Below are positions 21,880 to 64,000 of a stretch of 64,000 nt of DNA, piece by piece. Where the stretch lies: the NCBI GenBank assembly GCA_905178155.1, contig CAJINV010000004.1, forward strand, positions 8,454,882 to 8,518,881, in the 5' to 3' direction. The notes below the pieces were generated by a model, which saw only the letters and a program-made list of their open reading frames with translations, made no database searches and was not told the origin of the DNA. The stretch's first letter is position 1; each line of letters opens with the position of its first letter. Made by a program: the position numbers and the translations under genes. The stretch comes from Amoebophrya sp. A120. Taxonomy: Eukaryota > Protista > Dinoflagellata.

Positions 21880-24800
21880 CTATACCAACGCAGGGGAGAT
21901 GGCCACCGGGTTCGAACTGCCAGTTCCAGCAGCACCGTCCACCAGGATCCTGTCGTCGGCCGGAATCGCGAAGTCGCGTTCCATCATGTGCGGCCCGCGT
22001 GGGGTTTTCTCGCTCTTTACCGCAGCCTCAATGCGGGTCTTCGTGATCTCAATCACGCGCGCGTCGAGCTGTTTTTGATGTCGTGTATTGGTTTCTCTTT
22101 CTTCTCATCGAGATGAGAGTCCATTTGGAAGATGAAACAAGATCAACTCCGATTAAGCTACGACACACTAGAACACAAAGTCTTCGTCTACCTTTTCATC
22201 CCCCCAAAAGGCCTTCATTCCCAGCAAGTGTCGTACGTCGCTCGCGGCGTATTCGATCAGCATAGGATGCAAGGGCCGTCGCGCCCATTCTTCGCCCTCC
22301 TCTTTGGTATACAGCTTCTGCCCGGCCTCCTTCAGCCTGTGATATTGAATATTGTTTTGGGGGTTGTGCGTGAGCGTGGTGGAAGTGTAGAGTAGAATGG
22401 GATTACGAAAGTGCATGCGTGTGTGCATGACAAACTGAAGCTCGTCAAAGGATGAAGTATACAATACTAGTATGGGTCGTATGCATGATGAAGTTTATAC
22501 AATAATGCTAATACTTCTGAATCCGCTCTCTTTGCGCTAGTGCCAGCACCGAGTAGTTTCGGAAGCAGCGGCCGAGTCCCACTACGTAGGTGTGCTTCGA
22601 AATCGGCTGCCCATACTTCAGGTGAAACAGCACTTGAATGTCATACACGTTCTCCGTTTTCACGCGAAACAGGTGCCACAGCTGTGATTGTGATGTTGTG
22701 TACGTGGTGATTTTGCATGACAAAGAAGATTTATCTACGCATAATTTTTGCATGACAAAGTAGAACCACAACTTCTATACCGCATCATTGTCAGCCCGGC
22801 CGTCGAAGACAATTTTGCACACTTTCGCATTTTCCAACAAACTCCGCATTCCGCAGACGGAGAACAGCGTTTCCCCGATATTATTTGCAAAAGCGTCCCC
22901 ACACCAGAGTCAAGATGGGAAATCTGCTAGACAAATCAGCCAGCTTTGGTCGTTTGGCATCACAAGTTTGTCCTCGTAGCGTAATCCTGTTTAGGTAGTT
23001 CAGCAGCATCACAGATCTAGTATATCATGCTGATTGTAGCATCACAAATTCCAAAACACGACTAGAAAATGCCTCTCATGGCGCTCCGCATGACAAACTT
23101 TTTTGCCACGCAGATTTGCATGACAACTCGGGGGTGGGGACGTTTTTACTCTGAATACCCGAGCGCCTTCACGTCAAACAGGTAGACGGGTGAGAGTTCG
23201 TTGCAAATCTGGATCAAGTACACCGCGCCGCTGCGGTATGAGAGTGCAAAACCCCGCCCCTCCCCCTCATTTGTCATGCAAAATACCAAACGCACCCTTT
23301 GCCTCTTGGCACTTTTTGCATGACAGATTCTGGTAGCTGCCCAAACAGCACTACAATCAGTCCGAGGTCGTGGATTTGCCATGCAAAACCTGCACTCTTG
23401 CCGACGCTTGTATTGCTGCTCATACCCTACACATAAGGGCGGAGGGAGGGTTGTGCACTCTCATATGCGGCACAAGTCCCGGCCCTCGATGTCGATCGCG
23501 ATCGGGAGATCGTCGCTTAGGAGTAAATATCAACTGCAAAAATGTCTGGGTCTGGAAGAGTGCATGTTTGTCATGCTTGTCCGGCATGACTCTTAAATCT
23601 GTCATGCACGTTACCCAAGGGCCCCACTTTTCTGTCATGCAGAAACGCAGTTTGTCATGCAGAATAGGCAACACCTAGAAGCTCAAAAATTTGTCATGCT
23701 GTGCCAGCACTTGTGGCCTCCTCATGATACGCCACCCAGCATCACAAATTTCCAGACCCATACATATTTGCAGTTCATAGTAAATCAATCGCCGCCTTCG
23801 CGGTGTCGGGTTGGTCCAAAAAACACACCGTTTTGATCGTGGTCGCCACTAACGTGGTGTCCTGGTAGTGCACGGACAGGGACAGACTCGGTGCGGTGGA
23901 CATGGAGGCGAGATTTTGGGTGGCTTTTTCGAAGTCCGGGTTGCCGATGATGTCGTCGTTGTGACTGGGGAGGGGTAGGGTCAGGGGCGGGTCTTCGTGT
24001 TTCTCCACCAGGTTCTTCACGAATTTTTGGAAAAAGGACTCGATCTTGGGCGGTGTCGTGCTGGTAATATTCGGTATGGAATGTAAATATGTCTGGGTCT
24101 GGAAGATTCTGAGACTTGTCATGCAGGTTTTGCATGAGTCATGATGTCTGTGATGCGTGCCCTAGCATCACAGATTTTTTGAGGGCGTCTTGATGCCTAT
24201 TCCGCATGACAATTGCCCTATCCGCGTAGCAAAAATCACACTCCCTTTGCTGCTCATGCAATACAGATTTTTTTGCAATCCAAATGCAGCATCACAAGTT
24301 GCATTCTTCCAGACCCAGACATTTTTGCAATGCATATTCGGTGCGGTAGAGCCAGAAACTTTTTCCTCGATGAGCTCGCTGTTTTTCTCGAAAGGGTTGG
24401 CGAGTGCCTCGAGAGGAATGGTACAATTATCGGTGTGCAGGACCTGTGGTTATTTATTTTGCTGATGACAATGCTTCTGCTTCGTTCACGTTCTTATACG
24501 ACAGATGTGATGACAATGCTTCATTCAAGTTTTTTTATACGAAGTTTATTATAGGAAATTTTACGGAACAAAGGGAAACTAAACAATTATAGCTACCTCT
24601 TTCTCCTCTCCAATCACGGCAGCAGTGTTGATATCAAATGTAAAAATGTCTGGGTCTGGAAGATTCTGAGATTTGTAATGCATGTTTTGCATGACCCAGG
24701 ATGTCTGTAATGCACGACCGGGCATCACGGATTTTGAGCTGGCTTCCTGATGCCTACTCCGCATGACAAACGCCCTCCCCGCGCATCACAAACTAGACTC

Positions 24801-35599: not shown

Positions 35600-36869
35600 C
35601 ATCCTCACAACCCCGGAATCCAGAATGCACTGCTCCTTGGGTGGTTTCGGATCGCGGGGGCCGTCGTGGTGGTACTACCGTTTCTCCTGCGGCTCTTGGA
35701 GCTCCGCCCACTTCCACCGGCTCTCTTTGTGGCTTTCGCAGGGCGGAAACAGCTGCACCAGGAGCAGTCTATCCTGAGTAAAAGAGTCCCCGCCCCAGAA
35801 TCAACGAGATGGGAAATCTGCTATACAAATCAACAAGCTTTGGTTGTTGCGCACGACAAGATTGGGCTCGTAGTTTGCTCCTCTTAGCTTCTGCAGCAGC
35901 ATCACAGATCGATTACGTGATGCTTCTTCCAAAATCACAAACTCTGGCGTGGGGACGTTCTTACTCAGGATACAGTCCTCCTCTTCTTCATCCTGGAGGT
36001 TCGGCTGTCGTTTTCCGGGCGTTTTTCTGAGAGTGCACAACCCTCCCTCCCCCTATTTGTCATGCAAATTCCCAATTCTACCTTTTTTCTGCTAGCACAT
36101 TTTGCATGACAGATTCCGAAAGCCAAAACCGCACTACAATCCTCTAGGAATTTGTCATGCAAAAGCTGCATCTTTGCCAGCGCTTATGTTACTGCTCACG
36201 CAACACAAATGAGGAGGAGGGGGAGTTGTGCACTCTCATAGTTTTGCTTTGGCAAGACCGCTCGACTGGCAACCGCGGGACCCGGGCAGGACCTGTGCCG
36301 ACGTTCTGTTGTTGTAACAATGGCACACTGCGACTGTTTCCCGCGATCAGAGGGGCATAGTTGCGGTGCCAGGTGCGCTGCTGTTGTTGCTGCTGCGGTG
36401 GCTGTTGTTGTCCCTTCGTACTAGGCTGCTGCTGCCCTCCCAACGCAGCAGCTGCTCCTCCCGCTCCTCGTAGTCGTCTCTCAGCATCGTCTTTCAGCTT
36501 TGCGGCATTGGGTAGCTGCGCGGCCGTAGCAGCGCCCGCGCTCTTGCCGAAGAGGTTGCTGTCGTCCGCATAGAAGTCGTCGTCTTCTTGAATTCCTAAA
36601 TTCGCCAAGTTGTAATCTGCAAGCGAGCTTCCCGTCGACATCAAAGCCGCAGTGCTGGGAATCGATGAGGACGCGACACTGGACATACTGCCCGGAACTT
36701 GCTGTTGTCCTTGCTGTGGTGGCCCACCTCCACGACCTTCATAGGGGTAGTGATCGAGCGTACCGTGTTGTCCTCGTCCGGGCTGGAACCGCCGGTGGGA
36801 TAAAAAGAGACTGTTTGCAGCTGGAAAAAATTCAAGCAAGACGAGGACAAGAACCAACGACGCCAACAT
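35600..36869 (-). CDS. Hypothetical secreted protein (3' end uncertain)
   Basis: ORF 36189-36869 with signal-peptide-like MLASLVLVLVLLEFFPAANS; continues through two introners. Confidence 0.5.
35770..35972. mobile_element. Introner, family B (short)
   Basis: Family B TIRs; DR cagtc. Confidence 0.9.
36026..36240. mobile_element. Introner, family D
   Basis: Family D TIRs (left end tct); DR gtttt. Confidence 0.9.
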
Positions 36870-39041: not shown

Positions 39042-41719
39042 CTATTTATTTCCGACCAAGGCGTCGCTGAACTGCTTGATCTGCGCCACGGAAACCCTGC
39101 AGCTACCAAATGCAAATATGTCTGGGTCTGGAAGAGTCATGCTGCTTTTGCATGTATGACACAGGAGGTCTGGCATGGAAGCTCTAGCATCACAGGTTTC
39201 GAGAAGCTCTCGCAATGCCGAATCCGCATGACAAATGCCCCACTTTGGTGACAGAAAGTGGGCACCTTTTGCTACCTATGCATGAGAGACTTTTATGTGT
39301 TGCGAGATGCGCATCACAAGTTGGCACTCTTCCAGACGCAGACATATTTGCAACGCATAGCAGCACCCTCCGATCAGCGACGCGCCGGCTTGGTGAAACG
39401 CCACGGCGTCCGTGCCGTCCAAAACCTTCATGTGGTCGCCGTCGTGCCAGCACCGGTGGCATCAAATGCAAACATGTCTGGGTCTGGGGGCGTGGAAGCT
39501 TGTCATGCCGATTTTCCATGGCCCACGAGGTCGTCTGGAATACAGGACCTGGCATGACAGATACTGTGAATCTCTACCATGCCTGTCCTGCACCAGAAAC
39601 TCCCTCTCAACTTGGTCATCAAAAGTGGACAACTGTTGGCAGTCATGCACCACAGACTTTTACAAGGTGTAGACTTTTTAGCATCACAAGTTCTTGTCTT
39701 CCAGACCCAGACATATTTGCAATGCATAGTTGCCCCTCCGCGGCGTTCCACACTTCCCCGCTGTTGGGGTACACCGCGATGGGGAGCGAGGTGGTCTGCC
39801 GCAGTTTACTCACCAGGCCGGGGGCAAAGCTGGAGGCGTGGGCGGGTTTTGGAAAAGATACGGCAAGAAAATGAGTTGGTTGTAAAAATCTACGTAGACA
39901 AATCTGGAAGCAACATCGGAAGAAAAAAACAAAGCCAAGATCGGTCAACGTCCTGCAGTGCTTTTTGAAAAATCGTTTACTTTCATCTTGTATGGAATGC
40001 AAAAGCATCGTACTAGCAGTAATTGCAATACAAACTCGCTCAGCATGAAAGATGGAATTTGTCATGCTGGTTAGCCTTAGGAACGAGATTTGTAATGCAT
40101 GACTGCAATTACTACGAGTACGATACTTCTGCAGAGGATATCTTACCATGGATTTATGCAGTTGACCCCAATGGCGTGGACATGCGAAATATCAAATGTA
40201 AAAATGTCTGGGTCTGGAAACTTGTAATGCTGGGTGGCGTCTCATGATGAGGCCACAAATGCTGGCTTAGCATGACAAGTTTCTGAGCTTCTAGGTGTTG
40301 CCTATCCTGCATGACAAACTGCGTTTCTGCATCACAGAAAAACAGGGCTCTTGGATAACGCGCATTACAGATTTAAGACTCATGCCAGACAAGCATGACA
40401 AACATGCGTTCTTCCAGACCCAGACATTTTTGCATTTGATACGAAAAGGGTTCCAACGCCTTCGCGCAGTCCTCAATCGTTTCCCCCGAGTTCGTAACTT
40501 TGTCGTCCGGACACCAGTATCAACTGCAAATGTCTGGGTCTGGAAGAATGCCAGGCTTGTAACGCAGGTTCTCCATGACCCATGACGTCTGGCATGTGGG
40601 ACATAGCATCACAGATTCTGTGAGACGCGCACGAATTCTATCTTGCTTATCCTGCATGAGAAACTGCCTCGCGATTAGGTCAAAAGTGGAAAGCTTTTGG
40701 TAATCATGCAACACAGATTTTTGCATGATTCAGATGTAGCATGACAAGTTGCTTTGTTCCAGACCCAGACATATTTGCATTTGATAAGCAGAAAGACACC
40801 AACAAGGGAAGATCAAAAGCCGCGCTCTCCTCCGCCGCAACCAGGGCCTCGCGGGAACCGGCGAGGGTCTCGACGGAAAAACCGTCCACGCCAGCCTAAG
40901 TAGTTGTTGTATAGAGCGGGTTTAAAATCATCTGTGATGTAATTCTTTTAACTGCACAGAAGGAAATTTACCGTTCTTGTCTTTGTCGTTCGTACAAACA
41001 TACGTTCACTCAGATTGCGATGCAACTACATCAAACAACAATCTTCATACGACCAGAAGTTGATGTACCTTTTTCAGCATCCCGAGTTTCTGTCGGTAAT
41101 ATGTCCGCATGCGAATCTCCATTTCGCTACCATCGGACCTCGTGTTGGGATCTGTCGCCCCGACAAAAAGCATGGTGGAGTCGCGACAGGGTCCGACGCT
41201 GCCGAAGACCAAGGGCTTGACACTTTCGTCTGATATTTCGGCTGTTGCAGGCGGCTTGGATGCCTCATTACTGAGGGCAGTAGTGGTACTTGTAGAAGCA
41301 GTTTTCACTGCAACTGCTCCCGACCAATACTCGTCTCTTGCGTCTTTCGCTGCCTGGATGGATCGTTGAAACAACATTTCCGTATGCGATTCCAGCTCTT
41401 CTTCCCTCGCGCACTTTTCCTCCATGTCGTTCAGCATACCCCGCTTCCAGCACTCCTTGACGAGCTCCAGGGACAATTTGTACGACAAGGTCCCTATCAC
41501 TTTCGCGCCGGCGTTCAAAAAGTCTAAATGCACCTTCTTCAATGCCGGTAAACCACCGTCGAGGTTGTACAATAGCTGATGACCCCACAAGAAATGCTTC
41601 TCCGCGTTGTTGGGGAGAGACGTGGTGAGGCCGCCGTCCAGAATGCAAGCACCGTATTTGGTCAGAAACGGTTGAAAGCAGTTGGACGCACTGCGGTGGG
41701 GAGCGAAAGACGGCTTCAT
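39042..41719 (-). CDS. HMT: Homocysteine S-methyltransferase
   Basis: ILDGGL, VHLDFLNAGA, ETL, IGVNC, IAVYPNSGE and GASLIGGCCR motifs recovered after removing introners and GT-AG introns (e.g. 39830-40146). Confidence 0.9.
39104..39359. mobile_element. Introner, family A
   Basis: DR gcagc; splits the GGCC-R motif. Confidence 0.9.
39460..39728. mobile_element. Introner, family A
   Basis: DR ggtgg/gttgc; join in frame. Confidence 0.85.
39991..40140. mobile_element. Family C element nested in a canonical intron
   Basis: DR tcttg/tctta; lies 6 nt inside a GTAAGA donor. Confidence 0.85.
40190..40441. mobile_element. Introner, family A
   Basis: DR cgaaa; very similar to 17094-17345. Confidence 0.92.
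40518..40786. mobile_element. Introner, family A
   Basis: DR accag/agcag. Confidence 0.9.
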
Positions 41720-42650
41720 TGTGATTGTATGTTAATATTGTGAACACAGTGTAGATCAAAGAACCGGCTTCAAAAACAAGTAGTTCTGAAGCTGGAATAA
41801 AGCGAAACGGAGACCTGCTTAACCTGACACGACGTCGAGAGGAGCTAGGAAATAATCATCTTTTGATTATTAAACGATGACGGTCTTCACTACATCTGGA
41901 TTCACCCTTAGTTGAAAGTGGCATGGCAGTTTAAGTTTTAATCATGCGGTGACGATACATGAATCAGAGAAACTACTGCCACACGCTTCCGGGCTTTTGG
42001 GATCGTGATCAGTGTCAGCCGAATTATAAATCGATGCAACACAAAGACAAACTGCACGGAAGAAAGCACGGTTCTAATTTGTGAACACTAGAAGAACACT
42101 TAAGCCTCTGGCACCTCATTCACATATGCTTAAGCTTATGCACTTTCACCAGGACGCGCATTAATCTTAATTCCCTCCAGTTCCGAAAATTATGTTTTCG
42201 TGCGTGGCTCTATACACCCCTCGCAATTTCGCAGTTGCAAAATCTGACTCGTGTATCTATGAGTGGTATGAGATGGTACTTGGTACTGGTTTGTTTCAAA
42301 AAAATGCTCTGACCACGAAAATGAATCATGGCTTTACTTTGAAAAAAATCCTGTCTGCTGTACATCGAATAAAAACTGAAACCCGTTGTTATCAAAACGC
42401 GTAACGTATAACATTGTGTGAGATTGCAAAAAAACTTTCTCCCAAAAACGATGATGTAAACGGATGGCGTCGTGCGCTCAAGGTTTCTTGGAATTATCTG
42501 TTCTTTTGGTTGATTTCTGATTTAGTTTTTAAGTGGATCTTTTAAGTAGCAGAAGTTCATTCTTGTGCTCAATGAATACAAACGGCTGAGCCTGAACTAC
42601 CTCAAGGACGATTTAAAAAAAAAGTAAACAGTATCTCGCCAATATTTTCC

Positions 42651-46684: not shown

Positions 46685-49600
46685 CTAGTAATCCTCCTCG
46701 CCTTCATCCCCGTAGCTCTGACCGTAGTCATCGGGCCTTCGCTTCTTCTGTAGGTGCGTGAAAGCGGCGAATGCGCCGCCGACTGTGAGCACGCCCAGCA
46801 CCACGCCGAGGCCGATGTATAACTGTGCGGAGCTCTTACTCTCCTCTGGTGCCGGTTTAGGCTTTGGTGGCGGGTCGCACGCGTCTTTCGCTTCCGAGAA
46901 AACCGGTCCGCAGCTCTGGGGTGGGGACGTTTTTACACAGGATAGCATGCCGGCTCCTCCACGCAGAGCTGCAAGCACTGGTCAGGCGTGGTGTCTTTGA
47001 AAGCGTCCGAACTCCGCCCGACCGTTCGGTTCGTCAGGTTCTTCGCGCGGAGCACGTACTCGTTCACGTGCACCCCCCGCAAGGGTCGAGTGCATAAACT
47101 TTTGTACTTGTCAGTGACTTCGGGAAAGGGAAAAACGAGCCAGCTGCGCGTGTCGTTGTACGTGAAAACGTTCTGGACCGACGCGAAGTAGCCGATCGGG
47201 TATCCTACGCAAAAACGTCCCCACCCCAGACTCAAAATGGGGAATCTGCTAGACAAATCCACCAGCTATGGTTGTTGCGCACGCCAAGTTCTTTTGCCCC
47301 GTAGTGTAAAAATCCTGTTTCGCTCGTTCAGCAGCATCACAGATCTAGCCTGTGATGCTGATTGGAGCATTACAAATTTTTAAACGCGACTAGAAGATGC
47401 TTCGTATGGGGCGGCCCCGCATGAGAAACATTGTGATCCTGATCATGCAGTTTTGCTGCATGACAACTCTGGGGTGGGGACGTTTTCACATAGGATATCG
47501 GGCCCTCGTTGATCAGTTCGAACGTCCAGCACGGTTTGTGCTCCAACCCAATCTGGTTCGCTATGGATTGCAAAAATGTCTGGGTCTGGAAGGTTGCAAC
47601 TTGTGATGCTGCATTTGGATTCTAAAAGAATCTGTATTGCATGACCAGCAAGACGAGTCCAGTTTGTGCTACGCGGGAAGGGCAGTTGTCATGCGAAATA
47701 GGCATCAGGAAGCCATCTAAAAATCTGTCATTCTAGCTCATGCATTACAGGCATCATGGGTCATGCTAAATATGCATCACAAACCTGGCAATCTTCCAGA
47801 CCCAGACATATTTGCAGTTAATATCCGCACGGAAGTCACAAAAGTAGTCCTTCGTGGGTCCGGGGGTGTCGGCCGGGCCCCCGTCGAACTGCGGCGCGAT
47901 GATGCAGTCGTGGTCCGCGTGCTTCGTTCCGCGGTCTATGGTAAATTGTAACGTCGAGCCCGGCGGAAGTTGCCACTTTGTGATCTTCTGTTTCGGCACC
48001 ACATCAGGCCCGGCGGGGTCGTCCCAGAAGGCTTCCTCGTCTGGCGTGGGAGCGCCCGGGGGGATCTGTAACAGCATAAACCCCGTCTCGTGCAGCTCAA
48101 ACGGCATGTTGAACTTGCTTTTCCGGAGTTTGCGGATCACAAACCCAGTCGGCGTTATCGAGAACGCTGCCTTGTCGAAAAGCACTTCCCTTCTCGCACG
48201 AAAAAAGAGAAGCCAGGACGACAAAAAAAAGCACGATGAAATAAAATACGAATGTTGGTGTTCAAGTTCGTGTTGCCAGTCAGTAAAAAATGCAGAATAT
48301 GTACAAACAGTTACTACACCAACACGAGCGTTGTACGAGGGTCTGCCTTACTTTACGCACGAGATGAAAACCTAGCACGACTAAATTTGACAGCGATTGT
48401 TCCAACTCATCAGCACGATGGATTCCTGATGGTTTATGAAATGTAAAAATGTCTGGGTCTGCAAGAGTGCATGTTTGTCATGCTTGTCCGGCATGACTCT
48501 TAAATCTGTCATGCACGTTACCCAAGGGCCCCACTTTTCTGTCATGCAGAAACCGAGTTTGTCATGCAGAATAGGCAACACCTAGAAGCTCAAAAATTTG
48601 TCATGCTGTGCCAGCACTTGTGGCCTCCTCATGATACGCCACCCAGCATCACAAATTTCCAGACCCATACATATTTGCAGTTCATAGTAAATCGATCGCC
48701 GCCTTCGCGGTGTCCGGTTGGTCCAAAAAACACACCGTTTTGATCGTGGTCGCCACTAACGTCGTGTCCTGGTAGTGCACGGAGAGAGACAGACTCGGTG
48801 CGGTGGACATGGAGGCGAGATTTTGGGTGGCTTTTTCGAAGTCCGGGTTGCCGATGATGTCGTCGTTGTGACTGGGGAGGGGTAGGGTCAGTGGCGGGTC
48901 TTCGTGTTTCTCCACCAGGTTCTTCACGAATTTTTGGAAAAAGGACTCGATCTTGGGCGGTGTCGTGCTGGTATTCGGTGCACCAGGAGCAGTCTATCCT
49001 GAGTAAAAAAGTCCCCGCCCCAGAATCAACAAGATGGGAAATCTGCTAGACAAATCAACAAGATTTGGTTGTTGCGCATGACAAGATTGGGCTCGTAGTT
49101 TGCTCCTCTTAGCTTCTGCAGCAGCATCACAGATCGATTAGTACGTGATGCTTCTTCCAGCATCACAAACTCTAGCGTGGGGACGTTCTTACTCAGGATA
49201 CAGTCCTCCTCTTCTTCATCCTGGAGGTTCGGCTGTCGTTTTCCGGGTGTTTTTATGAGAGTGCACAACCCCCCCTCCCCCTCATTTGTCATGCAAAATC
49301 CCAATTCTACCTTTTTCCTGTTAGCACTTTTTGCAGGACAGATTCCGAAAGCCAAAACCGCACTACAAGCGAAAGTCGCACGCGTCTTTCGCTTCCGAGA
49401 AAACCGGTCCGCAGCTTTCGTACATTGAACGCACGCGTCCGAGAGCAGGCGGATGCAAGGCAGTAAATCACGGATAGCCCACGGAGGCGATGGTCCCGGC
49501 CGAGGCGGGACGCAAGGCAGTAAATCACGGATTGATACGCAGAAGAAGTGTTGTGTCTGCCCTGCAAAAACGCAAGATCTAAATTTGATGATCGCGAAAG

Positions 49601-52600
49601 CGGAAGACTTTGTTTGCGGACGAGGTCGTGTAAAGATCAAAATGAAGGTGCAGTTTCCATTCATGCTCATTAATTGTTAACAGGATAGATGATGATGATG
49701 ATGAATGTCAGATCTCCTGTCCTCCACCTCTTAGTTCACTACTTTCCAAATGTGCTACAAGGCAGAAAACGCCGCACGTATGCGCTGTGTGATTTCTTCT
49801 GCGCCGACTTAGCCGTTTGCGCGAAGTCGGAGGAGCTGTTAGATATTTGTTACTTTGTCCAATCATAAGCCGTTCGGTGGCCTCACTACAAACAAACAAA
49901 AAACCCCGCGACGCTCTAGCGTTTTTGATGTCGCTGGCATTAGTTGTGCGGCCCGCCGTGCTTGTGATTTTGATAGCATGCCATGGCTATTCATAGATCT
50001 CTGCAATCGCACTCCCTGCGCAGTTCACCCACCAAGCGAAAGTGCGCGGAAACGATGACACTCAACCAAGGCAGTGCCACTGCGCACTGTAGACATCGCG
50101 GCGAGATGCCCTGCGACGGTCACAGTGGAGAGTAAGGAGAGAGCCCGGCCGCGGCCAGCCCAGCAAGCTACAAAGAGCAAGCCGCGCGAGCCACGCGCTA
50201 AAGCCACACAGTCATAGCCAAGTCCCGGGCGTAAAATAGCTTGGCCAAACCGACCGGACCCACCGAAAACCTTCCCCGAGTGCTATTCAAGGCAGGGGCC
50301 GTAAATCGTTCGTCCGACGGCAGCGGGTCGCACGCGTCTTTCGCTTCCGAGAAAACCGGTCCGCAGCTTTCGGAAGCCCGTCCCGCAAGACACTCCGCGC
50401 CGCAGCGCTTACCAAAGGAAGGGCCCGAGCTCTGGCCCCCGCACGAAAATTAGCCCGCGGGCTACGCAGGCAGTGCCGGGGCGGCCATTGGAGGCCGCCG
50501 CCCATGCTGGCTTGTAAATTTCCGCTCCTGACGAGAATGGCGCCACGCCCCCGCCCCCAAGAGGCGGCCTATCTTTTGTCGCTTCTGCGTTGGCCTTGTA
50601 TATTCCGCCGTAGCTCCGGGCGGCTCAGCAAAACCGCCTCCAGGAGTCACTTCTATTGTTTTCGCGGGCCCTTTTGGGGTTTCGTCTAGCCACCCGCCCG
50701 CAGACGGAAAATTTCGAGCCTCGCCTAGCTTCTCAGAAATCTTCTTGCAAAACAACCGAGCGCGCAGAATCACGATCGAAGTCCACGCCTTCGGGCTTTA
50801 GAAGCTTGCTACGCGCGCGGCATTTTAGAAAGAGCCGGGTGGCGACAGGCTTTCGAAGTCGAAAACAAGGGGGCGGGCAGCGTTCCGAGCCGTTTGCCAC
50901 AACTTGGCTCCCCGCGGGCCCTCGAGCTGGCCTGCCCGCCTGCGGGTAGTGTTGGGGCATGATGCTCGACATACAGGCCGAACACCATGCCCCATCTTTG
51001 AAGCACCGCCGCCCACCCCAAGAGGAAGGACAGAAGTTTCCGCGCCATGCTTGTTGAGATCGGGCATTGGGAGGGTCGCACGCGTCTTTCGCTTCCGAGA
51101 AAACCGGTCCGCAGCTTTCGTACATTGCCGGCTCGTCGTATGGCACGAAAATAAAACTGTTGTATCAGTCTCAATTTGTTTTGCGGAGTTTGCTTGCTGC
51201 CTCCGGTTCCTGTCATGCTCGACATGGAAGATGAAGTCGGAAGGCCGCGGGGTTATGGTTTTATTGTGTTGCTAGAACAAAATGTCCGAATGGGAGCAGC
51301 AGGTTTGAGGCTTCTAAATACAGTTTTTTTTTTTTTTTTTTTGCCAAGGGAGGACTGGATCAAGCATGGACAGTGGTCCACTTTCCTGACTACTAGAAAG
51401 AAAATCTACTCATTCGCAAAATGGTTCTGCTCAGGATCTCGTTGTTGGTTGCGCCAGCAAGGGGGATAAAAGTAAGGCTGGTACGCGGATACAGGTGCAA
51501 GGTGTTCCAGTGTGAAGACAGATTCAGACCAGCGGCACAGCACCTCCCGCGCCCCGGCCGGGCCCCGCGCGCTCCCCTTCCTGGTCTGGCCTCACTGGAT
51601 GACTTCTAAATACAGTTTCAACTTTTTTCACGTCCGATACCTCACTAACATCCGCTTTCAGGTCGATTATCTTCTTTTTCGCCAAGTCGCACCCGGCGTC
51701 TTGAAACGCCTTCAGCCCATATCAGAGTGAAAAATGCGCCCGCCCCAAAAGTTGCGAATAATTTGTGATGCGAAGTTTCCAAAAGAAAACTCTTTGTCAT
51801 GCATGAAAAGAGAATGAATCTTTCTGACGCGAAGTCTAGATGAGCATGAGATGTATATAGCATCGCTTGCATGACAAGCGCCGCTCTTGCTGGGGTCTTT
51901 TGCAATGCAGGTTTTTGCTATTCACGATAAGAAATCTGTCATGCTGATAGACGCAAGAGGGCGAATGTTTCATTTGGAACGGTTTGCAATACAAATGCTC
52001 CCAAGTTCTGGGGTGGGCACATTTTTCATTGTAATAGTCCGCAGAAGCAGCTCTGCGAGATTTGGAGACACCGAAACCGTTCCTCGTCGTCGTATATCAA
52101 ATGCAAAAATGTCTGGGTCTGGAAACTCGTAATGCTGTGTTGGGAATAGTGAATGCACTGTAATGCACAGCCAAGCATGAGAAATATCTGCGCTTCTTTG
52201 TATTGCGTTTTTCGCATGAGAAACTGCGTTTTTGCATGACAGGCAAAAGGGTCTCTTCTTGGACACGCATTACAAGCTTTTTTGTCATGCCACCAGACAA
52301 GCATGACAAATCTCGCAATCTTCCAGACCCAGACATTTTTGCATTTGATATCGTGGACCTCGTCCGGATCGAACGCGTCACTTCCCACTTTCCCGAAACA
52401 CGGCCCCAGTACGTGGTCTTCGCAGGCCGCCGCGTCGCAGCTCGCGAAGGCCCCGTTGCACAATCGGTCGGCCCAGGTGGACGGCGGCTCCACGTCGTAT
52501 CAAATGCAAAAATGTCTGGGTCTGGGCACTCGTGATGCTGGGTGGCGTCTCATGATGAGGCCACAAGCGCTGGCTCAGCATGACAAGTTTCTGAGCTTCT

Positions 52601-55600
52601 GTTCTAGGTGTTGCCTATTCTGCATGACAGACTGCGTTTCTGCATCACAGAAAAATGGAGCTTTTGGGTAACGTGCATGACTGTCATGCATGTTACCCAA
52701 AAGCTTCATTTTTCACATGCATTCTTCCAGACCAAAAAGCTGGCATGACACCCATGCATTCTTCCAGACCCAGACACTTTTCCATTTGATACGTCGCAGA
52801 GCCCGGCCATTTGCTGCAGGAAGAGCAGCGAGTCGGGTTTCAGTACGTCTGCGTCGACGCCGCAGGCGTCCTTCCAGGCGGTGTGCGACGATTTGCAGGG
52901 GTCGTGCTGGCAGTCACCTGGAATGATGTCGTCGTCGGGAACTTCCATGCTCGGCTCCAGGTAGAGGCAGTTCGAGTAGTAGCTTTCGGCCTTCGTGACG
53001 CAGTCGTCGATCAGGTTTGTGTCTTTGCCGATAGAAGAGAGGCGAATCGCTATCCCGGGCAAAAACGTCCCCGGAACCAGACCTAGAGTCAAAGTCAAGA
53101 TGCATAACTATTTTACTTAGACTTACACAAAGCAACAGCTTTGTTTTGCATTTGCTGGTTGTCACGTCGCATTAATAAAAGTGTGGGATCGCAGCGTCAT
53201 CCTGATAGCTTAGCTATTGTAGCTGCATCAAAATAAATCGGCCGCCTTTTCCTGATTTATTTACTGCTCCACCCAGATAGCGATTACAACAAGCTTTTCG
53301 TGTGGTTGCGCATGAGACGCATCTATTCGTCTCAGGCATACAGATTTGCATCACAAACTACTTGGCATTGGGGCGCTTTTCCTCAACAGGATAATCATCA
53401 CATAGACCATGGTCTTGCTCGTCCACAGACAGTATGCATTGCAAATATGTCTGGATCTGGGAAGATGGAAACTTGTGACTCTCTCTGCCGCACTCGCACA
53501 AAAATCTGCAATGCACGAGTGTCAAAACCTGTGGCCCACTTTTGGCCACCCTGGGAAAGGATGTGTCATGCAGAATAGGCATTGCAAAGCTATTGCGCTA
53601 GACCCTGTAGTACTGCTGGGCCGTGCAAATTAGAACTTCTTGGCGGCGGCGGCCACACAAAAAGAAAAACACAAACAGCATGACAAACTTCAGCATATAT
53701 CCAGACCCAGCCATGATGTTTTTATTTGATAAACACTCGTTATCGGTATCCGCCGTGCAAGCGTCCTGCGCACCATCATGTACACTGCAATCCGCACCCT
53801 TTTCGGAGTTTCGGCTCCTGCAGAAAAACGGGGTTGTCTTTGTAGAAGTACTATCGGCTAGTGTTTTTACCTTCGACGACATCGTTGCGCCGGATGAGGA
53901 TTCACTCTGGAGCAGTTTGTATGAACTGCAAAAGTATCGCACTCGTATAAATGCATCACAGCATGAGAAATAAAATTTGTCATGCTGATTTACCTAAATA
54001 AAAATATTTGTAATGCAAGACTTGCATTTATACGAGTACGATACTTTTGCACAGGATAGTTTGTTCCCGGGTAGACGAGCAGGTGCTGTTTTCCTTTTCT
54101 CGACCTCGTCGTCACGAAGGACGTATCCTGTGCAAAAGTATCGTACTCGCATTGCAATCATGCATTACAAATCTCTTTCTTAAGGGTAAATCTGCATATA
54201 CAAATTTTATTTCTCATGCTAAGGAAATTTGTACTGCATTTATACGAGGGAGTACTATACTTTTGCAAATAATAGGACGTCAACATCATCATCTGCTTCG
54301 ATTCTATTCTTGTCGGCTGCTGCTGTTATGTTGCTCGGACTGGTTACGACCAGGGAGTTGGCCGCGCGCGGCCCGGACTTAGCTGTAGTATTGCCCTGTA
54401 GAAGTTCCGACGAGGAGCGGTTGGGAAACACTGCTGCTGGCGCAGGAGTTTGCTCATGGCCGCCCGGCGCAAGGCCGCGGTCCGATACTGCCAGACGCTG
54501 CTTTGATTGCGAAAAAAAATGAAAATCGTACTTATGCATTTTCACAATAACAAATTTCAATTTCTATCTTTATTTTTTCTTTATCTTTTGGAGAAGAAAA
54601 AATGAATTTACGCATGAAGCTTTGCGCCGGGTAGCAGATCTGTCACACGACATGCTGTAGCGCAAATAGTACGAACAAGTACGGTAGTTTTGCAATGAAT
54701 ACGCACACCCCTTCGCCAGTTCGCAAAAACGTGGGCGCGAAATCGTCATACTCGTCGGCGCGCACGAACTGCCCATCTTTTTGTTGGACTATTGCTTTTT
54801 CTTCGTTACTAACCAGTGGATTTTGGTTGCTTTGGGGCTCCTGCGGCAGCTTCGCTTGATTGTCCTCGCTGAGTGGCGTAGTTCCAGATGATTTACTGCT
54901 GGGCGCTTGATGATGTGCAGCGGGGGCCGTTTCCAACTCCCCTGCTCCGGCGGCCGCGCTGGCGTTTAAAAATCCGCTCGCGGCTGCGATGTCGTCGATC
55001 TCCTGTTGCGTGTCCAATACTAGACCGGGACCAGCCGAAACTGATGGCACAATAGAAACGGAGTCGCGATAACGAAGCAAAACCGCCGGTGGGTGACTGA
55101 CGCACAAGTTGCTCGGCTGAACAGAAGTAGATTCCCCCGGCGTTTCCTGGTGCGCTTCCGGGTCTGCAGAGTAGAGCTTGTTGAGCAATTCGGCGTACTC
55201 GCTGCTGTTCTGCTTCCAACCCAACGCTTTCTCGAGCGCACTGCGCCTCACGCAGAGTGTTTCTTCTTGAACGGTAAAGGAACAAGGGTCACTGTGCCGT
55301 TCAAGTCCACGGACAGGCTTTGTTGCCGTGGCTGATGTCGGTGGCCCAGTACTTGCTGGACCGGCCACGGCTGGCGGTCCCGTGGAGGATGCGGCCATAT
55401 TGATTTTAGATGTTTTTCAACATTGAGTCGCTGTTGATACTAAAATTTTTTTGCACTTTTTCTTCGCTGTGTTTTTTACGTTTCATATTGCGATAGTCCA
55501 CGTATTCTAAGCCCCTCTAGAAGACCCTCCGGAGGTGGCTATGGGCCTCTGACGGCAGTGGTCATGTACATGTTTTCGTTTGATCTTCTTCTTCAGATAG

Positions 55601-56311
55601 ACACAGCTGTGTAGCAATTCAGTAGGAAGAAATCGCACTTCATCATTTGTCACCACTACGCATCCTCGCCGCAAGCGCGTGAAACTACTGTGGGCGTCAA
55701 TGAGATCTTTTTTGGCTTCGTCTGCCCGGCGCAAGGCCGCGGTCCGATACTGCCAGACGCTGCTTTGATTGGGAAACTTCTTCCACAACATGTTGCCCAC
55801 CTTGTCCATCTTGTTGTGGTGTTCCAGATCCAGTATGATCTTTATTTCTCTCATCCCGCAGGAGCAGCAGCTGGGGTTCCGCTCCGGCCTCCAGAGCGAA
55901 GGCGGCGTTCTTCTGGAGAGAAGAAGAAGATGGCTGAAAATGCTCTTGGTTTATTACCTCATTTAGATCCCGCACGGATGTTTTTGCATCGGTTCTCGTT
56001 CTCCCGCCCAGGTCGCTCTGCGGGGTGGCGGATGAAGACGATACTAGTGCAGCAGTCTTCTCTTCGCGCTGATGCAACCCGTTTAGCTCATGCTTCCCGT
56101 CGTTCTGCTCCGCATCAAAGATGTCTTTAGTGTCCTGATCTGCAACATGCAGCTGCAGTAAATGATCGGTTCGAGAAGTATCAATCGCGCACACGAAGAC
56201 CAGCTGCACTGGGTGTTGCTGCCGCCATCGCCAAAAAGACGTTCCGCTGCAGCAGGCCACTGCGAACAGACGCAGCAAACACGGGCGGAGAGGCGGTCGC
56301 ATGTTTCTCAT
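46685..56311 (-). CDS. Cys-rich type I membrane protein interrupted by 8 introners and two long-DR-flanked insertions (functional status unknown)
   Basis: Signal-like N-terminus (ORF 55697-56311), then ...SQSKQRLAVSDRGLAPG[insert]GHEQ..., Cys-rich exons 51640-53919, EPAMYESCGPVFSEAKDACDP[insert]PPKPK..., TM LYIGLGVVLGVLTVGGAFAAF and a short tail. The frame is continuous once the inserts and one repeat copy each are removed. Confidence 0.7.
46872..46915 (+). repeat. 44-bp target repeat, copy 1 (others at 49375-49427, 50323-50372, 51073-51116)
   Basis: gggtcgcacgcgtctttcgcttccgagaaaaccggtccgcagct occurs four times (copy 2 lacks the first 2 nt). Confidence 0.95.
46914..48197 (+). repeat. Copy of 17842-19125, including introner copies 47201-47497 and 47562-47823
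   Basis: Constant offset of 29072; identical ORF translations. Confidence 0.95.
48196..48434 (+). repeat. Diverged copy of 20424-20643
   Basis: gcacgaaaaaag...ttcctgatggtt with several substitutions and indels. Confidence 0.9.
48435..48978 (+). repeat. Copy of 23528-24074 (introner plus exonuclease exon)
   Basis: Starts at the first base of one introner and ends at the DR of the next. Confidence 0.93.
48979..49368 (+). repeat. Copy of 35754-36139 (introner B copy 48995-49200, truncated D from 49254)
   Basis: High identity with scattered substitutions. Confidence 0.93.
51139..51639. mobile_element. Decayed long introner-like intron
   Basis: tatggcacgaaaataaaactgt...acagtttcaacttttttcacgtccgata; DR cgtcg/cctca; join DVS-E-EPAMY in frame. 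Confidence 0.6.
51720..52036. mobile_element. Introner, B-related TIR variant
   Basis: tatcagagtgaaaaatgcgcccgcccc...ggggtgggcacatttttcattgtaata; DR matches 3/5. Confidence 0.8.
52095..52350. mobile_element. Introner, family A
   Basis: DR tcgta/tcgtg. Confidence 0.9.
52498..52791. mobile_element. Introner, family A, with internal fold-back
   Basis: DR cgtcg. Confidence 0.9.
53051..53393. mobile_element. Introner, family B (diverged)
   Basis: DR atcgc/atcat; join VYVMI-RLSS. Confidence 0.8.
53433..53731. mobile_element. Introner, family A (diverged)
   Basis: DR gacag/aacac; join NEC-LWTSK. Confidence 0.8.
53920..54058. mobile_element. Introner, family C
   Basis: DR gtttg. Confidence 0.92.
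54124..54274. mobile_element. Introner, family C
   Basis: DR ggacg. Confidence 0.92.
54462..54509 (+). repeat. 48-bp target repeat (second copy 55724-55771)
   Basis: gcccggcgcaaggccgcggtccgatactgccagacgctgctttgattg is exactly repeated. Confidence 0.95.
54506..55724 (-). pseudogene. Captured 5' fragment (upstream region, first exon, truncated introner) of the 58607-61452 gene family
   Basis: 55181-55724 is near-identical to 61235-61778; 54506-55180 is a diverged homologue of 60467-61234; ORF 54643-55398 parallels 60706-61452. Confidence 0.85.
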
Positions 56312-57079
56312 TTCGATTTGTGCTTCATCCTAAAAACCTGCAGCACGTCGACATCGACGCAGCATGTATTTCTATATGCACCACCACCACCACCAAGATG
56401 AACCACAAACATCTTCTTCATAGCAAGAGTGCCCCATTTGTTCTACTCTTTTTCCGGAGACACCATGTCCGCTCTTCGTCGCTCAAAAATCCCCAAACTT
56501 CAAGCTCACGACACTCTTCACGACAGATTGTCGACCCAGGACAAACAGATAGAAGCTTAAGCTTCAGTTTGATAAACACAAGGGTCAAAAATCTCAATAA
56601 ACACATTCGCTCTTCCTGCTCTAACTCCATCCAGTCACGAGCGGCTTCAGATGTAGAGCTCCCGCAGCCACTTCGCTTCATGAAAGCACCACCACGGCCC
56701 CTTCGGAACAACCCGGAAGTGGCAAACGAAGATGCCGATAAGTTTAATAAGTAGTGCTTGTGTTTGTTCTTGTTGTATTCAAAAAATAAAAAAATCAACC
56801 TCCATGACGCGAAAGATCGAGGAGCATCTTCATCCAGCCGAAAATGGTGTCGGTTCTTCGGATTCTATTCGTAAAACATCACAGTTGCACAGGAAGAACT
56901 GCCTGCTCCTTCTGTCTTCGCATTCGCTGTTCTTGAAACCAGTATAAAACTAACAGTTATAATCTAAATCTTCTTCATACAGCTTGAGCTTTCGCCTTCT
57001 CGGAGCAATAACCAACGCAGATCGAGTGGTAGAGATGGGCCGCTCCAGTTCCAGAAACATCTACGTACTACCGTCCTCC

Positions 57080-58606: not shown

Positions 58607-61452
58607 TCACAATTCCAATTGCGGGAAAACGCATCTGATTTCGATTGGCTCTTTCATCGGTTCCTTCCGCCGACGACGTTTCTCGAAAACTTCCGCCGCC
58701 ACGTCAAGCCAGGTGTGGTCCGCTTTGAGAAAGCCGGACCCGATCTTGTCTTTGTTTATTTTCCCAGATGATGCTGGTTCTTGCGCTTGCTGTGCGCTAG
58801 GGGATTTGTTTTTGCCACCGTTGCTGCTGGTGCCATTATTCTCCGCTTCCTCCTCGTCAGGAAGAAGTTTCTCGCGGTTGTTATCTGCTGTTGTGTTTGC
58901 CGGAGCGGATGCCATTAACGCGTCTTGTTCACCGCCCTCGATCATATCATCGTCCCGCCTCTCATCCTGACTGGCGTCAACATTGTCATCGGCAGGAACA
59001 AATCCCGTTTCATCCTGTAATTCCTCGACCAAAAACTTGACGTTTTCTGGAGCGTACTCTTGGAAGCCGGGAAAAATGTTTTTCCACCATAAATTCTCGC
59101 TCTTCTCCCCCGTTATAATGTCCGCAAACCTCGTGCCGTCGACGGCATGCTCCCGAACGATCTTCACCAGCAATTTCAGTTCCTCCAAAAATGTTCTCGC
59201 TTCTGCGCCTGTACCAAATTCGAAATCGATCTTTCTTGCAATTCCGCTGTCGGGCATGTTAAGTGCAGGTTGGAAAGTGATGCGCACGGCTTGCTTGTCG
59301 TCCTCTGGAGGGACGGCACTGGAATCCGACTCGTTGATAAACATATTCGCATCTGTATGTGCAGGATTAGTGGATAAATCTCCGTGGTCTTGTGCGCTGA
59401 CATCTTCCCCGGCTACAGCAACTGCCTCGTCGTCGCCGGTGGTTTGCGGCAGAGGCCCGTAAAGAACTACAGCTGCTCCTTCTCGCGCGTGCGAGCTGCT
59501 ATTTTCACCGTCTTCTTCAACTCCGATTTCTTCGTTCTCCTCGCGTTCGTAGGTCCCAGGCGGCCAGTCGGAAAATTGTAATTCTTGTCCTCGCAGCTCG
59601 ATCACAATGAAACCGGTATAATAGGTCGCCTCCCGAGCTTCCTCCGTTGACCAAAAAACTGGTATGCTACGGTCTAGCAATCCGAAGTGGTGGCTCAAGC
59701 CAAGCTTGACACGCTCGTGAAGATCCACCGACAAACTCGGGATATCGTCCTGCTGGACCCAGCAGTGGTATACTTCGCCTGTATACAGACAAACCCACAA
59801 TCCCAAGTAAGCTTGCGGAAAAACTTCTGTGTCGCGAAAAGGCATCTCGTGAGGGAATGCGTCCGCCGGCGAGCGGGTGATGCGTTCAACATTATGCGGG
59901 TTCGCGAAGCGAAGAAGTGCCGTGTGCCGAAACTGGCGACAATCCCGCTCCTTCTTCAACGCGCTTTGGTCCCAGCAATCCTCGTCCAGGTCCAACAACT
60001 GCTCGCGGTACCGGAGACGCCGGGCGAACGTGCCCTCCGGTAGCTGAAACTCCTCCTCCAGCCGCTTCCCAACGTCCGCAACAAACGCTGCCTCGAGCTT
60101 GATGGCTTCCTGTCGGAGCACGCTTTCCAGTGTTCGAAGTATTGGCATCGGTTCGGCGAGCAGACAGGGGTGGACCGCGAAATCCCGCACACTAGGACAC
60201 GGTGCTACGGCCACACTAGACGCCTTTCCTGCGGTAATCTCGTGCTTGCCCATGTTCACCAGGCGAAACGGCAAACAGAGTCCGTCCGCTGCTGCGGCCG
60301 CGGTTAAGATATTCTGTCTAGGGTCGTGGACACACGTTCTTAGCAATGTGCCATCGCTGTCGGTTGCAGCGGCGTCCCACTGCCTTGCCATCAGTCTTAT
60401 CAGCTCCAACCTTCTTTGCCTCTTTTTCACACACCGTAGAACCGCGGCAGCGTACTCGTACTATGCATTGCGAAAAAATCGTACTTCTAGACTAAAGCTG
60501 CGCATCTTCACAAATTACTTTATTCGAAGTGCGAGGTAACAAACTCAATCTGGAACTTCGCGGTTGAGTCCTTATCCGCCCGGCCGGCCGGATGACAACT
60601 CAACCACTTCTGCAAAAAATACTGAAAGCATTTTTTGAAAAAGAAAAAAGAAAATCCTCGTGAAGTTTCACGCCGGTTAGCAGATCTGTCACACGACATG
60701 CTGTGTCACACGACATGCTGCAGCGAAATTAATACGACTAAGTACGGTAGTTTTGCAATGAATACGCACACCCGTTCGGCAGTTTGCAAAAACGGGGCCG
60801 CGAAATCGTCATACTCGTCGGCGGACGCGACCACGACCTGCCGATCTCGTCGTTGCACCGATGCTTTTTCTTCGTTACAAGCCAGCCGATTTTGGTGATT
60901 GCGGGGCCCCTGCTGCAGCTTCGCTTGATTGTCACTCTCGTCGGGCGGCGTGGTTCCAGAAGATTTACTGCTGGGCGCTTGAAGATGTGTTGTTTTCAAC
61001 TCCTCTCCCCCGACCGGGCTGGTGCCCGTCAATCCGACCGCAGCGGCGATGTCTTCTATTTCCTTCTGCGTGTCGAATATCAGTTTGGGAGGAATCGAAC
61101 CTGATGGCAGGATCGAAATCCTGTCTTGGGAACCAAGCAAAACCGCCGGCGGATGCTTGGCTTCCAAGGTCCTCAACAAAGTTTTTTTCCACGTATCATC
61201 ATGGACCACTTCCAGGTTTGCAGAGCCGAGCTGCTTGAGCAATTCGGCGTATTCGCTGCTGTTCTGCTTCCAACCCAACGCTTTCTCGAGCGCACTGCGC
61301 CTCACGCAGAGTGTTTCTTCTTGAACGGTAAAGGAACATGGGTCACTGTGCCGTTCAAGTCCACGGACAGGCTTTGTTGCCGTGGCTGATGTCGGTGGCC
61401 CAGTACTTGCTGGACCGGCCACGGCTGGCGGTCCCGTGGAGGATGCGGCCAT
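58607..61452 (-). CDS. Hypothetical protein, tandem paralog 1
   Basis: ORF 60706-61452 joins 58607-60430 in frame (ERVC-EYAAAVLRCVKKR) across one introner. Confidence 0.75.
60462..60764. mobile_element. Introner, family C-like (long)
   Basis: tatgcattgcgaaaaaatcgtact...agtacggtagttttgcaatgaata; DR cgtac/cgcac. Confidence 0.85.
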
Positions 61453-62025
61453 ATTGATTTTAGATGTTTTTCAACATTGAGTCGCTGTTGATACTAAAAT
61501 TTTTTTGCACTTTTTCTTCGCTGTGTTTTTTACGTTTCATATTGCGATAGTCCACGTATTCTAAGCCCCTCTAGAAGACCCTCCGGAGGTGGCTATGGGC
61601 CTATGACGGCAGTGGTCATGTACATGTTTTCGTTTGATCTTCTTCTTCAGATAGACACAGCTGTGTAGCAATTCAGTAGGACGAAATCGCACTTCATCAT
61701 TTGTCACCACTACGCATCCTCGCCGCAAGCGCGTGAAACTACTGTGGGCGTCAATGAGATCTTTTTTGGCTTCGTCTGTACGGTGCTTTTGTTTGTCGTT
61801 GAAGTTGCAGAGCAGCTCATCTCAAGATGGCAAAATGATGTAATAATGTCTTGTAATCATCTTTTTATCTCCACTGCCACGCGAATTCATAGTCGCAAAA
61901 GAAGCCTAGAACACCCGGATCCGTTCCTTGCGAGCAGCATTAGTGCCACTTTCTTGCTCCTTCACGAGATATTCTCAGTCTTCATCATCAGTGCTCGAGA
62001 ACAGAATCCTCCGCCCCAGATCAGT

Positions 62026-64000
62026 CTATAACTGCGGAAAAACGCACTTAATCTCGATCGGCTCCCTCATAGGCTCCTTCTTTCGCCGCCGCTTTTCAAA
62101 GACCGCCGTTGCCACGTCGAGCCAGGTCTGGTCTGCACGAAGGATGCCGGCGTCGTCTTGTGAGCCAGAAACGACTGCGGTGTTGGAAACCGCAGAAGTG
62201 CTGATGGCAGTGTCCCCTCCTGCGACGGCAGCAGTTTCTTCGTCGGGGAGCAGCCTCTCCCGTACAAGCCTTCCTGAAACCGCGTCGAGCGACGTTATGC
62301 AGTCGATAGCCATCGTCGCCTCGCCACAGGATGAATGCTTTATTTCCTGTTGTTCCAGTGAGTTGTCGTGTTCGTCGGAGGTCGTGCTGACGTCGGGAGA
62401 AGCTGGCTCCTGCAGTTCCTCGACCAGAAACTTCACGTTCTCTGGCTTGAACACCCCCGGAGCTGGAAAAACGTGTTTCCACTCGAGGCCTTCGCAGTTG
62501 TCTTTGCCCGTGACGATATCTTTCCACGCCGTATCCAGGAAAAAAACTGTGTAAGTGTAACTTTGTAGGTGTAGGAAGAGCAGCATCACAAATTCGTTTT
62601 GCATCACACGGAAAACCTCTCATGCGCAGCTAGTACGTGGAAACGCGTATGATAGTAGCCTATGACGCACTTCCAGCATGACAAGTGTAACTGTTTTGCA
62701 TTTTCTGCATCACAGATTTACACTTGCACAGTTTTTTTCTTGCATACGCTGTCGTCTTGGAGTACTCACGAATGATTTTGTGCACCAGTTTCAATTCGTC
62801 GTAGAACTTGATAGCTTCGTCAGCGGTTTTGAAAGCCAGGTCCATCGTTTTCATGTCAGTGTCGTCAAATTCCTCATTATTTGCGAACAGCGTAAAACGC
62901 ACAATGTGATAGATGTCATCGACGTCATCGAGATCGATCTCATCGTCTTCTTCAGCAGGTGAATGAGACTGCAGGATGCCGTGTTCAACAACCGCCCGCT
63001 TGACATCGTCCCAGTCCCAGTCATGGTGGTCGTCGCGGAAACTTGTATGGTCAATCTTGAGTTTATCCACCTAGAGAAACGCTTTTTTATTAATGCAGAT
63101 ACTGCAAGAAAAATGCCTAAAGTATTCGTCCGGCGTGGCCTGCGTGATTCCACTGCAACTTCTGCAATGGCAGATATACAAGTTAGTATAGTATCCAGAG
63201 TAATCCAGCGTTTTTCATCGTGGATACAGCTCTATCACCACACAGTAGGTGCCCTCGTATTTCCTCCGAAAAGTCAAAGCCGACGAATCAGTGTCCGCGC
63301 AAAACAGAATCGGCACGTCGTCGACCAAAAACGGGAACTCGGTCTCGTCGTTGAGATCGATGACGTTGTCGCGCGACGGGTCCTCTTCCGTCGCCACGAG
63401 ACTCGTTTTGACAAGGTTGCGCTCCGCGTCGCAAATAATGAAGCACCGCTGCACCGAGCCACGATACGGACACACCCTCAGGCACAGCGACCCTGCTGTA
63501 AGGAGCTTCGGAATATCTTCATCTAGTATAGAAAACTCGAGGTCGTCATGCTCACGTTCCCGCACTATCACTGTTGCTCTGTGACGAGAGGAAAAGCGCA
63601 GTTCAGGCAAAAATGGTGACTCGGGAAAAAGAAATTCATGCCGCACTATGCTTTGTGCGTCCAACAATCCCCCGGTCCATGCGACACCGTCCACCAACGA
63701 CGCAGGCCTCACAGGCTCTCGAAACCGGGCTCGCTTGTCAAAATTGTTTGGTGGTAGTTGAAGCTGCCTTTCCAGTTTTTCGACGACACCCACCATGAAC
63801 GCCGCCTCTGTTGTAGTTGCAAATTGTCGCATCACGCCTTCCAGCGTCTCAAAAACACTGATGAACTCAGCTGTCAGCCGTAGCTTCTGAGCTCGTGAAT
63901 TCAGTGGTAGACGCCCGGGTGCCGCGACACACAGTGCTGTTCCGTTCGCTATCTCCTGTCCGCCCATTTTCATCAGGCGAAAACTGATTCCCACCCCGCC
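62026..64000 (-). CDS. Hypothetical protein, tandem paralog 2 (5' end outside window)
   Basis: Shares FRL..MG..EI, ELKL..KI.RE, PENVKFLVEELQ and TWLDVA..VFEKRRR.KEPM.EPIEI.CVFPQL with paralog 1. Confidence 0.75.
62532..62746. mobile_element. Introner, family E
   Basis: DR cgccg/cgctg. Confidence 0.9.

Follow-up and report, generated by a model that had tools for sequence, protein, structure and literature searches.

Among the systems that resemble the insertions described here are the introners of the dinoflagellate Amoebophrya, which are flanked by repeats of 3-5 nt (PMC7789003) and which in strain A120 are distributed over several element classes, not all of them with a known mechanism (PMC12130899). 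Templated insertions, in turn, are otherwise known as scattered repair scars. Here, a 64,000-nt stretch of DNA (the window; contig CAJINV010000004.1, forward-strand positions 8,454,882 to 8,518,881) from Amoebophrya sp. A120, a marine parasite controlling algal blooms, was analyzed, in which one gene for a predicted surface protein is interrupted at two sites by long inserts (cargos) lying between long direct repeats of the host's own coding sequence. Together with the orthologous gene of a related genome, six such events were detected in this one gene, and as the related genome carries two different inserts at the second site, this site is likely a reusable insertion hotspot built by DNA break repair and not an ordinary transposon.

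Results

At the second of the two sites (site 2), a maximal exact repeat of 48 nt with a spacing of 1262 nt was found (54462-54509 = 55724-55771; window coordinates throughout), whereas the longest repeat obtained in 200 base shuffles of 54000-56400 did not exceed 15 nt. The 48-mer encodes QSKQRLAVSDRGLAPG on the minus strand, on which the parts of the host gene, the target copies of both sites, cargos E2 and A, insert D and the local homologue of E2 also lie, whereas cargos B and C carry no strand label. Its upstream copy (55724-55771) is located in host exon 1 and is separated from the downstream copy (54462-54509) by cargo E2 (54510-55723, 1214 nt), which has no poly(A) and no terminal repeats of its own. 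The frame of the 5' part of host exon 1 (55724-56311, 196 codons) ends 8 codons into E2 and is resumed by the downstream 48-mer copy in the 3' part of the exon (54275-54509), which is annotated as the start of CAD7947150.1; the public annotation divides the host gene at the insert. When the 1262 nt were taken out, frames P0001 and P0002 fused in frame, and in the orthologous gene of the related genome the same reading frame is present on either side of site 2. An exact 48-bp duplication, an open reading frame restored by removal of the insert and junction overlaps of attg and g had all been proposed in a first-pass annotation made from the sequence alone, and all three were borne out. The attg overlap forms the core of an imperfect 8/9 match to the host at the 3' junction of E2, equalled at 7 of 63992 window positions, and at the 5' junction a 6/9 match is equalled at 729 of 63992 positions.

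Both junctions were also recovered in contigs from X1, a DNA-like run that possibly is the source sample of the window assembly itself. In order, these contigs cover 54276-54491 (depth 30.5), 54480-54706 (25.6), 54681-55228 (21.1), 55199-55724 (48), 55695-55753 (27), the 48-mer (49.9) and the sequence from 55742 onward (27.5), and their breaks coincide exactly with the places that the window sequence predicts. The 48-mer alone reaches a depth equivalent to two copies (49.9 versus 27.5-30.5 for its flanks), while the left junction of E2 is crossed by contig 54480-54706 and the right one by contig 55695-55753, both at single-copy depth. The right-junction contig, of 59 nt with fewer than 31 letters per side, shows that the junction words exist and is not a long bridge. 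From the contig depths it follows that the E2 insert is present in most or all of the X1 sample, and its sequence occurs also in runs from a second sample and study. Since X1 may be the source of the assembly, it excludes a misassembly but does not bear on strain specificity. At 55497, the collapsed X1 contig has C where both window copies have T.

Cargo E2 contains the 5' end of a gene of a neighboring family, namely 325 nt upstream of a start codon, a first exon of 232 codons and most of intron 1, and this content resembles the neighbor CAD7947156.1 (GSA120T00022892001, 845 aa, no family found), whose 5' end at 60467-61778 is the local homologue of E2. The homology to this region that had been claimed earlier is real but uneven. 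One part of E2 (55199-55724) is nearly identical to 61253-61778 (523/526, 99.4%) and is represented by two copies in X1 at a depth of 48, whereas the remainder (54510-55198) is only 79-86% identical to the local gene: 372 of 471 aligned bases (79%) agree in the 496 nt of 54703-55198, and 82-86% in the intron part. The latter is a captured introner-type intron (54510-54701) whose truncation point falls within the terminal inverted repeat, a few bases from its edge. In the diverged exon part the frame is open, with dN 0.30 and dS 0.30 over 159 codons. At a divergence of 15% the chance that a 48-mer stays exact is 0.0004, and so the divergence of E2 is older than its insertion. As the diverged part is one unbroken single-copy X1 contig without other letters, there is no near-identical donor in X1, and a search for identity between this part and the orthologue of the other genome found none. 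One orthologue, P0010, agrees with the neighbor in 56/60 and 66/76 residues in two blocks in which the cargo reaches 32/60 and 50/73; in one block P0010 matches the cargo in 12/23 residues versus 5/20 between neighbor and cargo. The template of E2 may thus have been a mosaic allele or paralogue that is no longer in A120. Cargos that look local differ from the present local copies by 0-21%, suggesting that the template was partly another allele or paralogue, and orthologous DNA of A120 and the related genome differs to a similar extent (4-21%). In the donor region, a 17-nt tandem duplication in the donor intron (60687-60720) is missing from E2, and an upstream paralogue of CAD7947156.1 (28-43% identity) occupies 62029-63997, with its first exon beyond the window.

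The related genome is represented by JACKZZ010001488.1 (L001), the single locus obtained when metagenome contigs were scanned with 33 target bases; viral contigs gave 0 matches to the target. L001 holds the orthologous host gene, exon 1 of which is 96% identical to that of A120. At site 2, three target copies separate two cargos of 1460 and 965 nt that are unrelated to the window, to one another and to the A120 cargos. The two inserts have a common starting point, directly after a base that precedes the A120 endpoint by 4 nt, and their opposite ends differ, resulting in exact repeats of 50 and 35 nt. Target copies 1 and 2, those long enough for the comparison, share a base absent from A120, and therefore the L001 duplications would have arisen after the lineages split. 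Judged from these sequences, the inserts of L001 and A120 are independent strikes on one site. E2 and both L001 inserts each bring a stop soon after site 2. The second L001 insert was considered as the end of an LTR element and this was rejected, the only match among 1.84 billion representatives being the insert itself. In L001 1-354, sequence of 67% G+C replaces the A120 sequence past window position 56605, indicating that a further insertion or a rearrangement took place immediately upstream of this gene.

The other site (site 1), initially read as one event of the same design, instead consists of three nested inserts between four copies (46870-46915, 49375-49427, 50323-50372 and 51073-51127) of a target different from that of site 2. 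The duplications measure 42 bp for cargo A, 57 bp for cargo B (inferred from nesting) and 48 bp for cargo C, with one end within 46870-46874, and the nesting is consistent with B having been inserted first, followed by A and C. Cargo A (46916-49374) is made of four collinear same-strand pieces with introners retained, which correspond to 17842-19125 (1284/1284, 100%), 20424-20643 (201/218, 92%), 23556-24066 (503/511, 98.4%) and 35754-36139 (370/386, 95.9%), the chromosome order being kept over 18 kb. Cargo B (49428-50322) has short re-copied pieces at one end, and cargo C (50373-51072) has 62% G+C. A local template, assumed earlier for these inserts, was found for E2 and A only, and for cargos B and C and both L001 cargos there is no donor in the window or in L001. 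X1 contigs break at 46899, and 46918-47485 shows doubled depth (50.6). L001 lacks inserts A, B and C and has two introners at site 1 instead (L001 6410-6911), which flank a mini-exon of about 40 bp exactly at the A120 target; one of them has its 5-bp repeat at 46871-46875, the near-fixed end, and the other lies 4-15 nt inside the variable end. Within cargo B, 49447-49532 contains a 29-nt duplication around 27 other bases, a miniature of the long-duplication design, and run X3 shows a different native sequence before 49504.

Recurrence in the gene had thus been recognized but understated, as two events were counted where there are four in A120 and two more in L001. The six duplications are 35-57 bp long, the cargos 0.7-2.5 kb, and at each site one duplication end lies within 4 nt; the chance that a further independent strike falls within 4 nt of a given end in about 1.8 kb of coding sequence is approximately 0.005. 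As junction filler, cargo A has 9 nt of host sequence copied in inverted orientation, and L001 insert 1 has 13 nt copied from the host. The cargos are unrelated to one another and have no A tails, and window cargos with known donors keep their introns. Contig depths indicate a donor kept in place, with a gain of copies, for 55199-55724 (48) and 46918-47485 (50.6) and not for 54681-55228 (21.1). Short elements with terminal inverted repeats and 5-bp repeats abound in the window. E2 had been held to be distinct from such introners, and this is supported: it has a 48-bp exact repeat, no pair of terminal inverted repeats of its own and a depth of one to two copies. Among exact repeats of at least 14 nt lying no more than 6 kb apart in the part of the window not masked as multi-copy, there is no further long-repeat insert. 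A 35-nt repeat at 10035/11169 was discarded as a further event because it sits inside a paralogous pair of 83% identity (10017-10326/11151-11463). Elsewhere in the window, pieces of an ion-channel/EF-hand gene (7705-10028) and of a homocysteine S-methyltransferase gene (41045-41731) are present. An Rfam search gave 3 weak miRNA matches below the gathering score.

The last exon of the host gene (46688-46915) encodes a predicted C-terminal membrane helix (19-residue hydropathy 2.16), in line with the earlier designation as a surface-protein gene. Host and donor proteins have no Pfam family, the predicted fold has a pLDDT of 38.5 and all Atlas matches have TM < 0.5. Comparison of A120 and L001 gave pN/pS 0.73 over 503 codons (p 0.13), with no stops and four in-frame gaps, and therefore purifying selection between the genomes is not supported. 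The insertions likely disrupt the host gene.

A further insert in the same gene, insert D (51311-51618; 276 nt, a 19-nt A run at its end, 16-bp duplication), is located inside an introner-type host intron; its site is empty in L001, and it bears the signature of ordinary retroposition. An X3 contig extending downstream from 54491 is 1336 nt long, and the spliced length to the A run of D is 1315 plus 19 nt, so that, judging from length only, host transcripts likely end early at D, before the membrane helix. In the RNA-like runs X3 and X6, which are from one sample together with X4, a single contig runs through the complete 48-mer and on into the exon upstream (depth 17.6/16.1), and the downstream-exon contig ends at 54491 (depth 11.4/10.1); the left E2 junction has no contig in X3 or X6 and one in X4 (depth 3.1). 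Contigs built from 31-mers cannot phase a 48-bp repeat, no cargo-free joint is listed and the uncovered gap is A+T-rich (20-25% G+C), and this pattern would look alike under removal of E2 from mRNA, switching by reverse transcriptase or an empty allele. Raw RNA reads of X9 and X10 (108 and 3, all partial) were uninformative on removal of E2. In X4, the donor intron (60462-60769) was removed together with one full 5-bp repeat, bypassing an available GT-AG pair and in agreement with the annotation, which indicates that an element together with one of its repeats can be removed in this organism; a loose end is present at 54702. On paper, the captured exon could splice in frame from 54702 into the downstream 48-mer (54500-54702) to give a chimeric gene, and RNA contigs contained no such joint or branch.

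Discussion

The reading preferred here, to which we assign a probability of about one half, is that staggered nicks at a recurrent site are followed by template-switching synthesis at microhomology and by a fill-in that regenerates the target. A nuclease or a fragile chromatin feature would nick the two strands 35-57 nt apart, with the position of one nick being near-fixed; the free 3' end would anneal to other DNA through 1-9 nt of partly mismatched homology, and 0.7-2.5 kb would be copied, at times hopping forward along one template as in cargo A. The copied strand would then rejoin the host end, fill-in would duplicate the overhang and, as the target is regenerated twice, later rounds could yield target-cargo-target arrays. 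The nicks, the annealing, the hops, the return, the fill-in and the re-cutting are all inferred steps. A DNA template is favored because introns were kept even though X4 shows the donor intron to be spliced, because pieces are collinear over 18 kb and because A tails are absent. Part of the template likely came from a partner haplotype or from a paralogue that A120 no longer has, and this would point to a sexual or co-infection stage.

Several observations weigh against this mechanism. No nuclease or polymerase was identified, and a near-fixed end is not what generic repair would be expected to produce. Similarity between the two targets is not significant, an equal score being reached by 18% of random pairs matched for G+C, and their folding is not unusual (z -0.3 to +1.3 alone; -2.1 for site 2 with flanks), which leaves the choice of site without explanation. 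At the fixed end, T is the first base of five of the six cargos and also of the poly(A) insert D (p ~0.017, post hoc), a pattern that fits reverse transcription better. For the diverged part of E2 the actual donors were not found, and P0010, the sole orthologue found, is mostly closer to the local gene. Finally, the evidence from L001 comes from one contig without a read check.

The main rival explanation, possible but less likely, is that an enzyme of a site-preferring non-LTR retrotransposon (CRE, R9 or Dualen type), acting in trans, nicked the target, copied unspliced RNA or single-stranded DNA with template jumps and produced the long duplication. Such machinery has acted in this gene, as insert D demonstrates, elements of this kind are present in A120 (PMC7789003; PMC12130899), site-specific CRE elements give variable duplications (PMC12278014), and R9 gives duplications of 126 bp and Dualen longer ones (PMC9977147). 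In vitro, R2 switches between templates and the bases it adds are mostly A (PMC8857657), which agrees with the T-first cargos and the mosaic structure of cargo A, and both E2 and A are sense to their genes. However, among the frames scanned none of the six cargos has a Pfam reverse transcriptase match, and none has an A tail or a shared end; introns are kept in every window cargo whose donor is known, no significant motif is common to the two targets, and the near-fixed end would correspond to the second nick in the polarity of D. In another scenario, meiotic SPO11 cuts two chromatids at offset positions within a recombination hotspot and the ends are joined with captured fragments, which would account for cargo from a partner haplotype and for reuse of the site. 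In the mouse, tandem duplications as well as ectopic inserts of 15-967 bp arise at hotspots (PMC13532658; for SPO11 double cuts see also 10.1101/2020.06.23.168138), and SPO11 and DMC1 are both expressed in one of the spore types of A120 (10.1101/2025.04.10.648098). This origin is nevertheless unlikely, given cargos of 0.7-2.5 kb, a collinear four-piece cargo and re-copied host pieces that require synthesis and not ligation, and an end fixed within 4 nt, which is tighter than a hotspot.

The introners at site 1 of L001, one of them on the near-fixed end, as well as the end of E2 inside an introner terminus and the start of piece A3 of cargo A at another, would fit a role for the introner-mobilizing machinery or a dedicated integrase, which would open sites and integrate captured DNA, comparable to the repeat duplication by Cas1-Cas2 and with a repeat-cargo-repeat array as the product. 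Such a role appears quite improbable, as site 2 has no introner in either genome, the lengths of duplications and cargos vary, the junction filler is repair-like, the cargos show no sign of function and no transposase was found in A120 by PMC7789003. Very little weight is given to the possibility of one ancestral insertion with later cargo swap, or of an assembly artefact. It would draw on there being two genomes only, on X1 perhaps being the assembly's own sample and on the unchecked contig of L001; against it stand different endpoints, unrelated cargos, the lineage-specific base in the L001 copies, single-copy junction contigs, the insert sequence in a second sample and study, and the consideration that two independent assemblies would not fail at one site. 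For A120 this reading is largely refuted. Going beyond nicking and template switching, one could envisage a programmed, site-specific DNA-capture system, in which an enzyme reopens defined 35-57-bp targets in surface-protein genes, integrates kilobases of self or partner DNA, regenerates the target and builds repeat-cargo arrays resembling those of CRISPR, by which the surface protein would be switched off or altered, the long repeat allowing precise removal of the insert from RNA or DNA; we consider such a system rather unlikely.

Three strikes on one 48-bp coding site across two genomes, together with three on a second site, imply a site-choosing activity in this lineage, and the two targets offer a direct substrate with which to look for it. 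In a parasite in which meiotic genes are expressed and zygotes have not been observed (10.1101/2025.04.10.648098), cargo unlike the copies present in the genome would record past sex or DNA exchange. Through these events, promoters and first exons also enter a predicted surface gene that evolves fast, which would provide a route to knock-out or exon shuffling. In the accessible literature, with subscription journals mostly outside the search, no report of recurrent long-duplication capture in Amoebophrya or other protists was found.

When compared with described systems, the locus shares with the introners of Amoebophrya the genome and the gene, flanking direct repeats and, at site 1 in L001, coincident positions (PMC7789003); introners differ in being multi-copy, in having terminal inverted repeats together with direct repeats of 3-5 nt and in a length that is 150-350 nt here. 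The site-specific elements CRE/SLACS, R9 and Dualen similarly combine a fixed site, a long variable duplication and repeated use, whereas here the inserted DNA is intron-bearing host DNA, different each time, in single-copy coding targets and with no element sequence or tail. In CRISPR spacer acquisition, each capture duplicates the target and extends a repeat-cargo array, as the 35-57-bp duplications do here; unlike in CRISPR, the ends and lengths at this locus are variable (repeats 35-57 bp, cargo 0.7-2.5 kb), the cargo is self DNA of kilobase size, there is no sign of a guide function and no Cas family was present among the 28 window frames scanned. In tandem duplication by paired nicks (PMC8355091), the overhang sets the length of the duplication (43-49 nt there) and targets survive and can be cut again; here, the events are natural and a kilobase cargo lies between the copies. 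In cycles of templated insertions (PCAWG, PMC7025897) and in inserts of the MMBIR/TMEJ type, a string of copied templates returns to the locus and re-copies a host segment, with microhomology of 1-9 nt and short filler here as there. The events described here differ from such cycles in being inherited, in recurring to the base pair in two genomes, in a duplication of only 35-57 bp, in repeated rounds that give arrays and in a template partly absent from the present genome. The locus thus shows most features of a cycle of templated insertions, to which recurrence at base-pair precision in two genomes adds a new trait.

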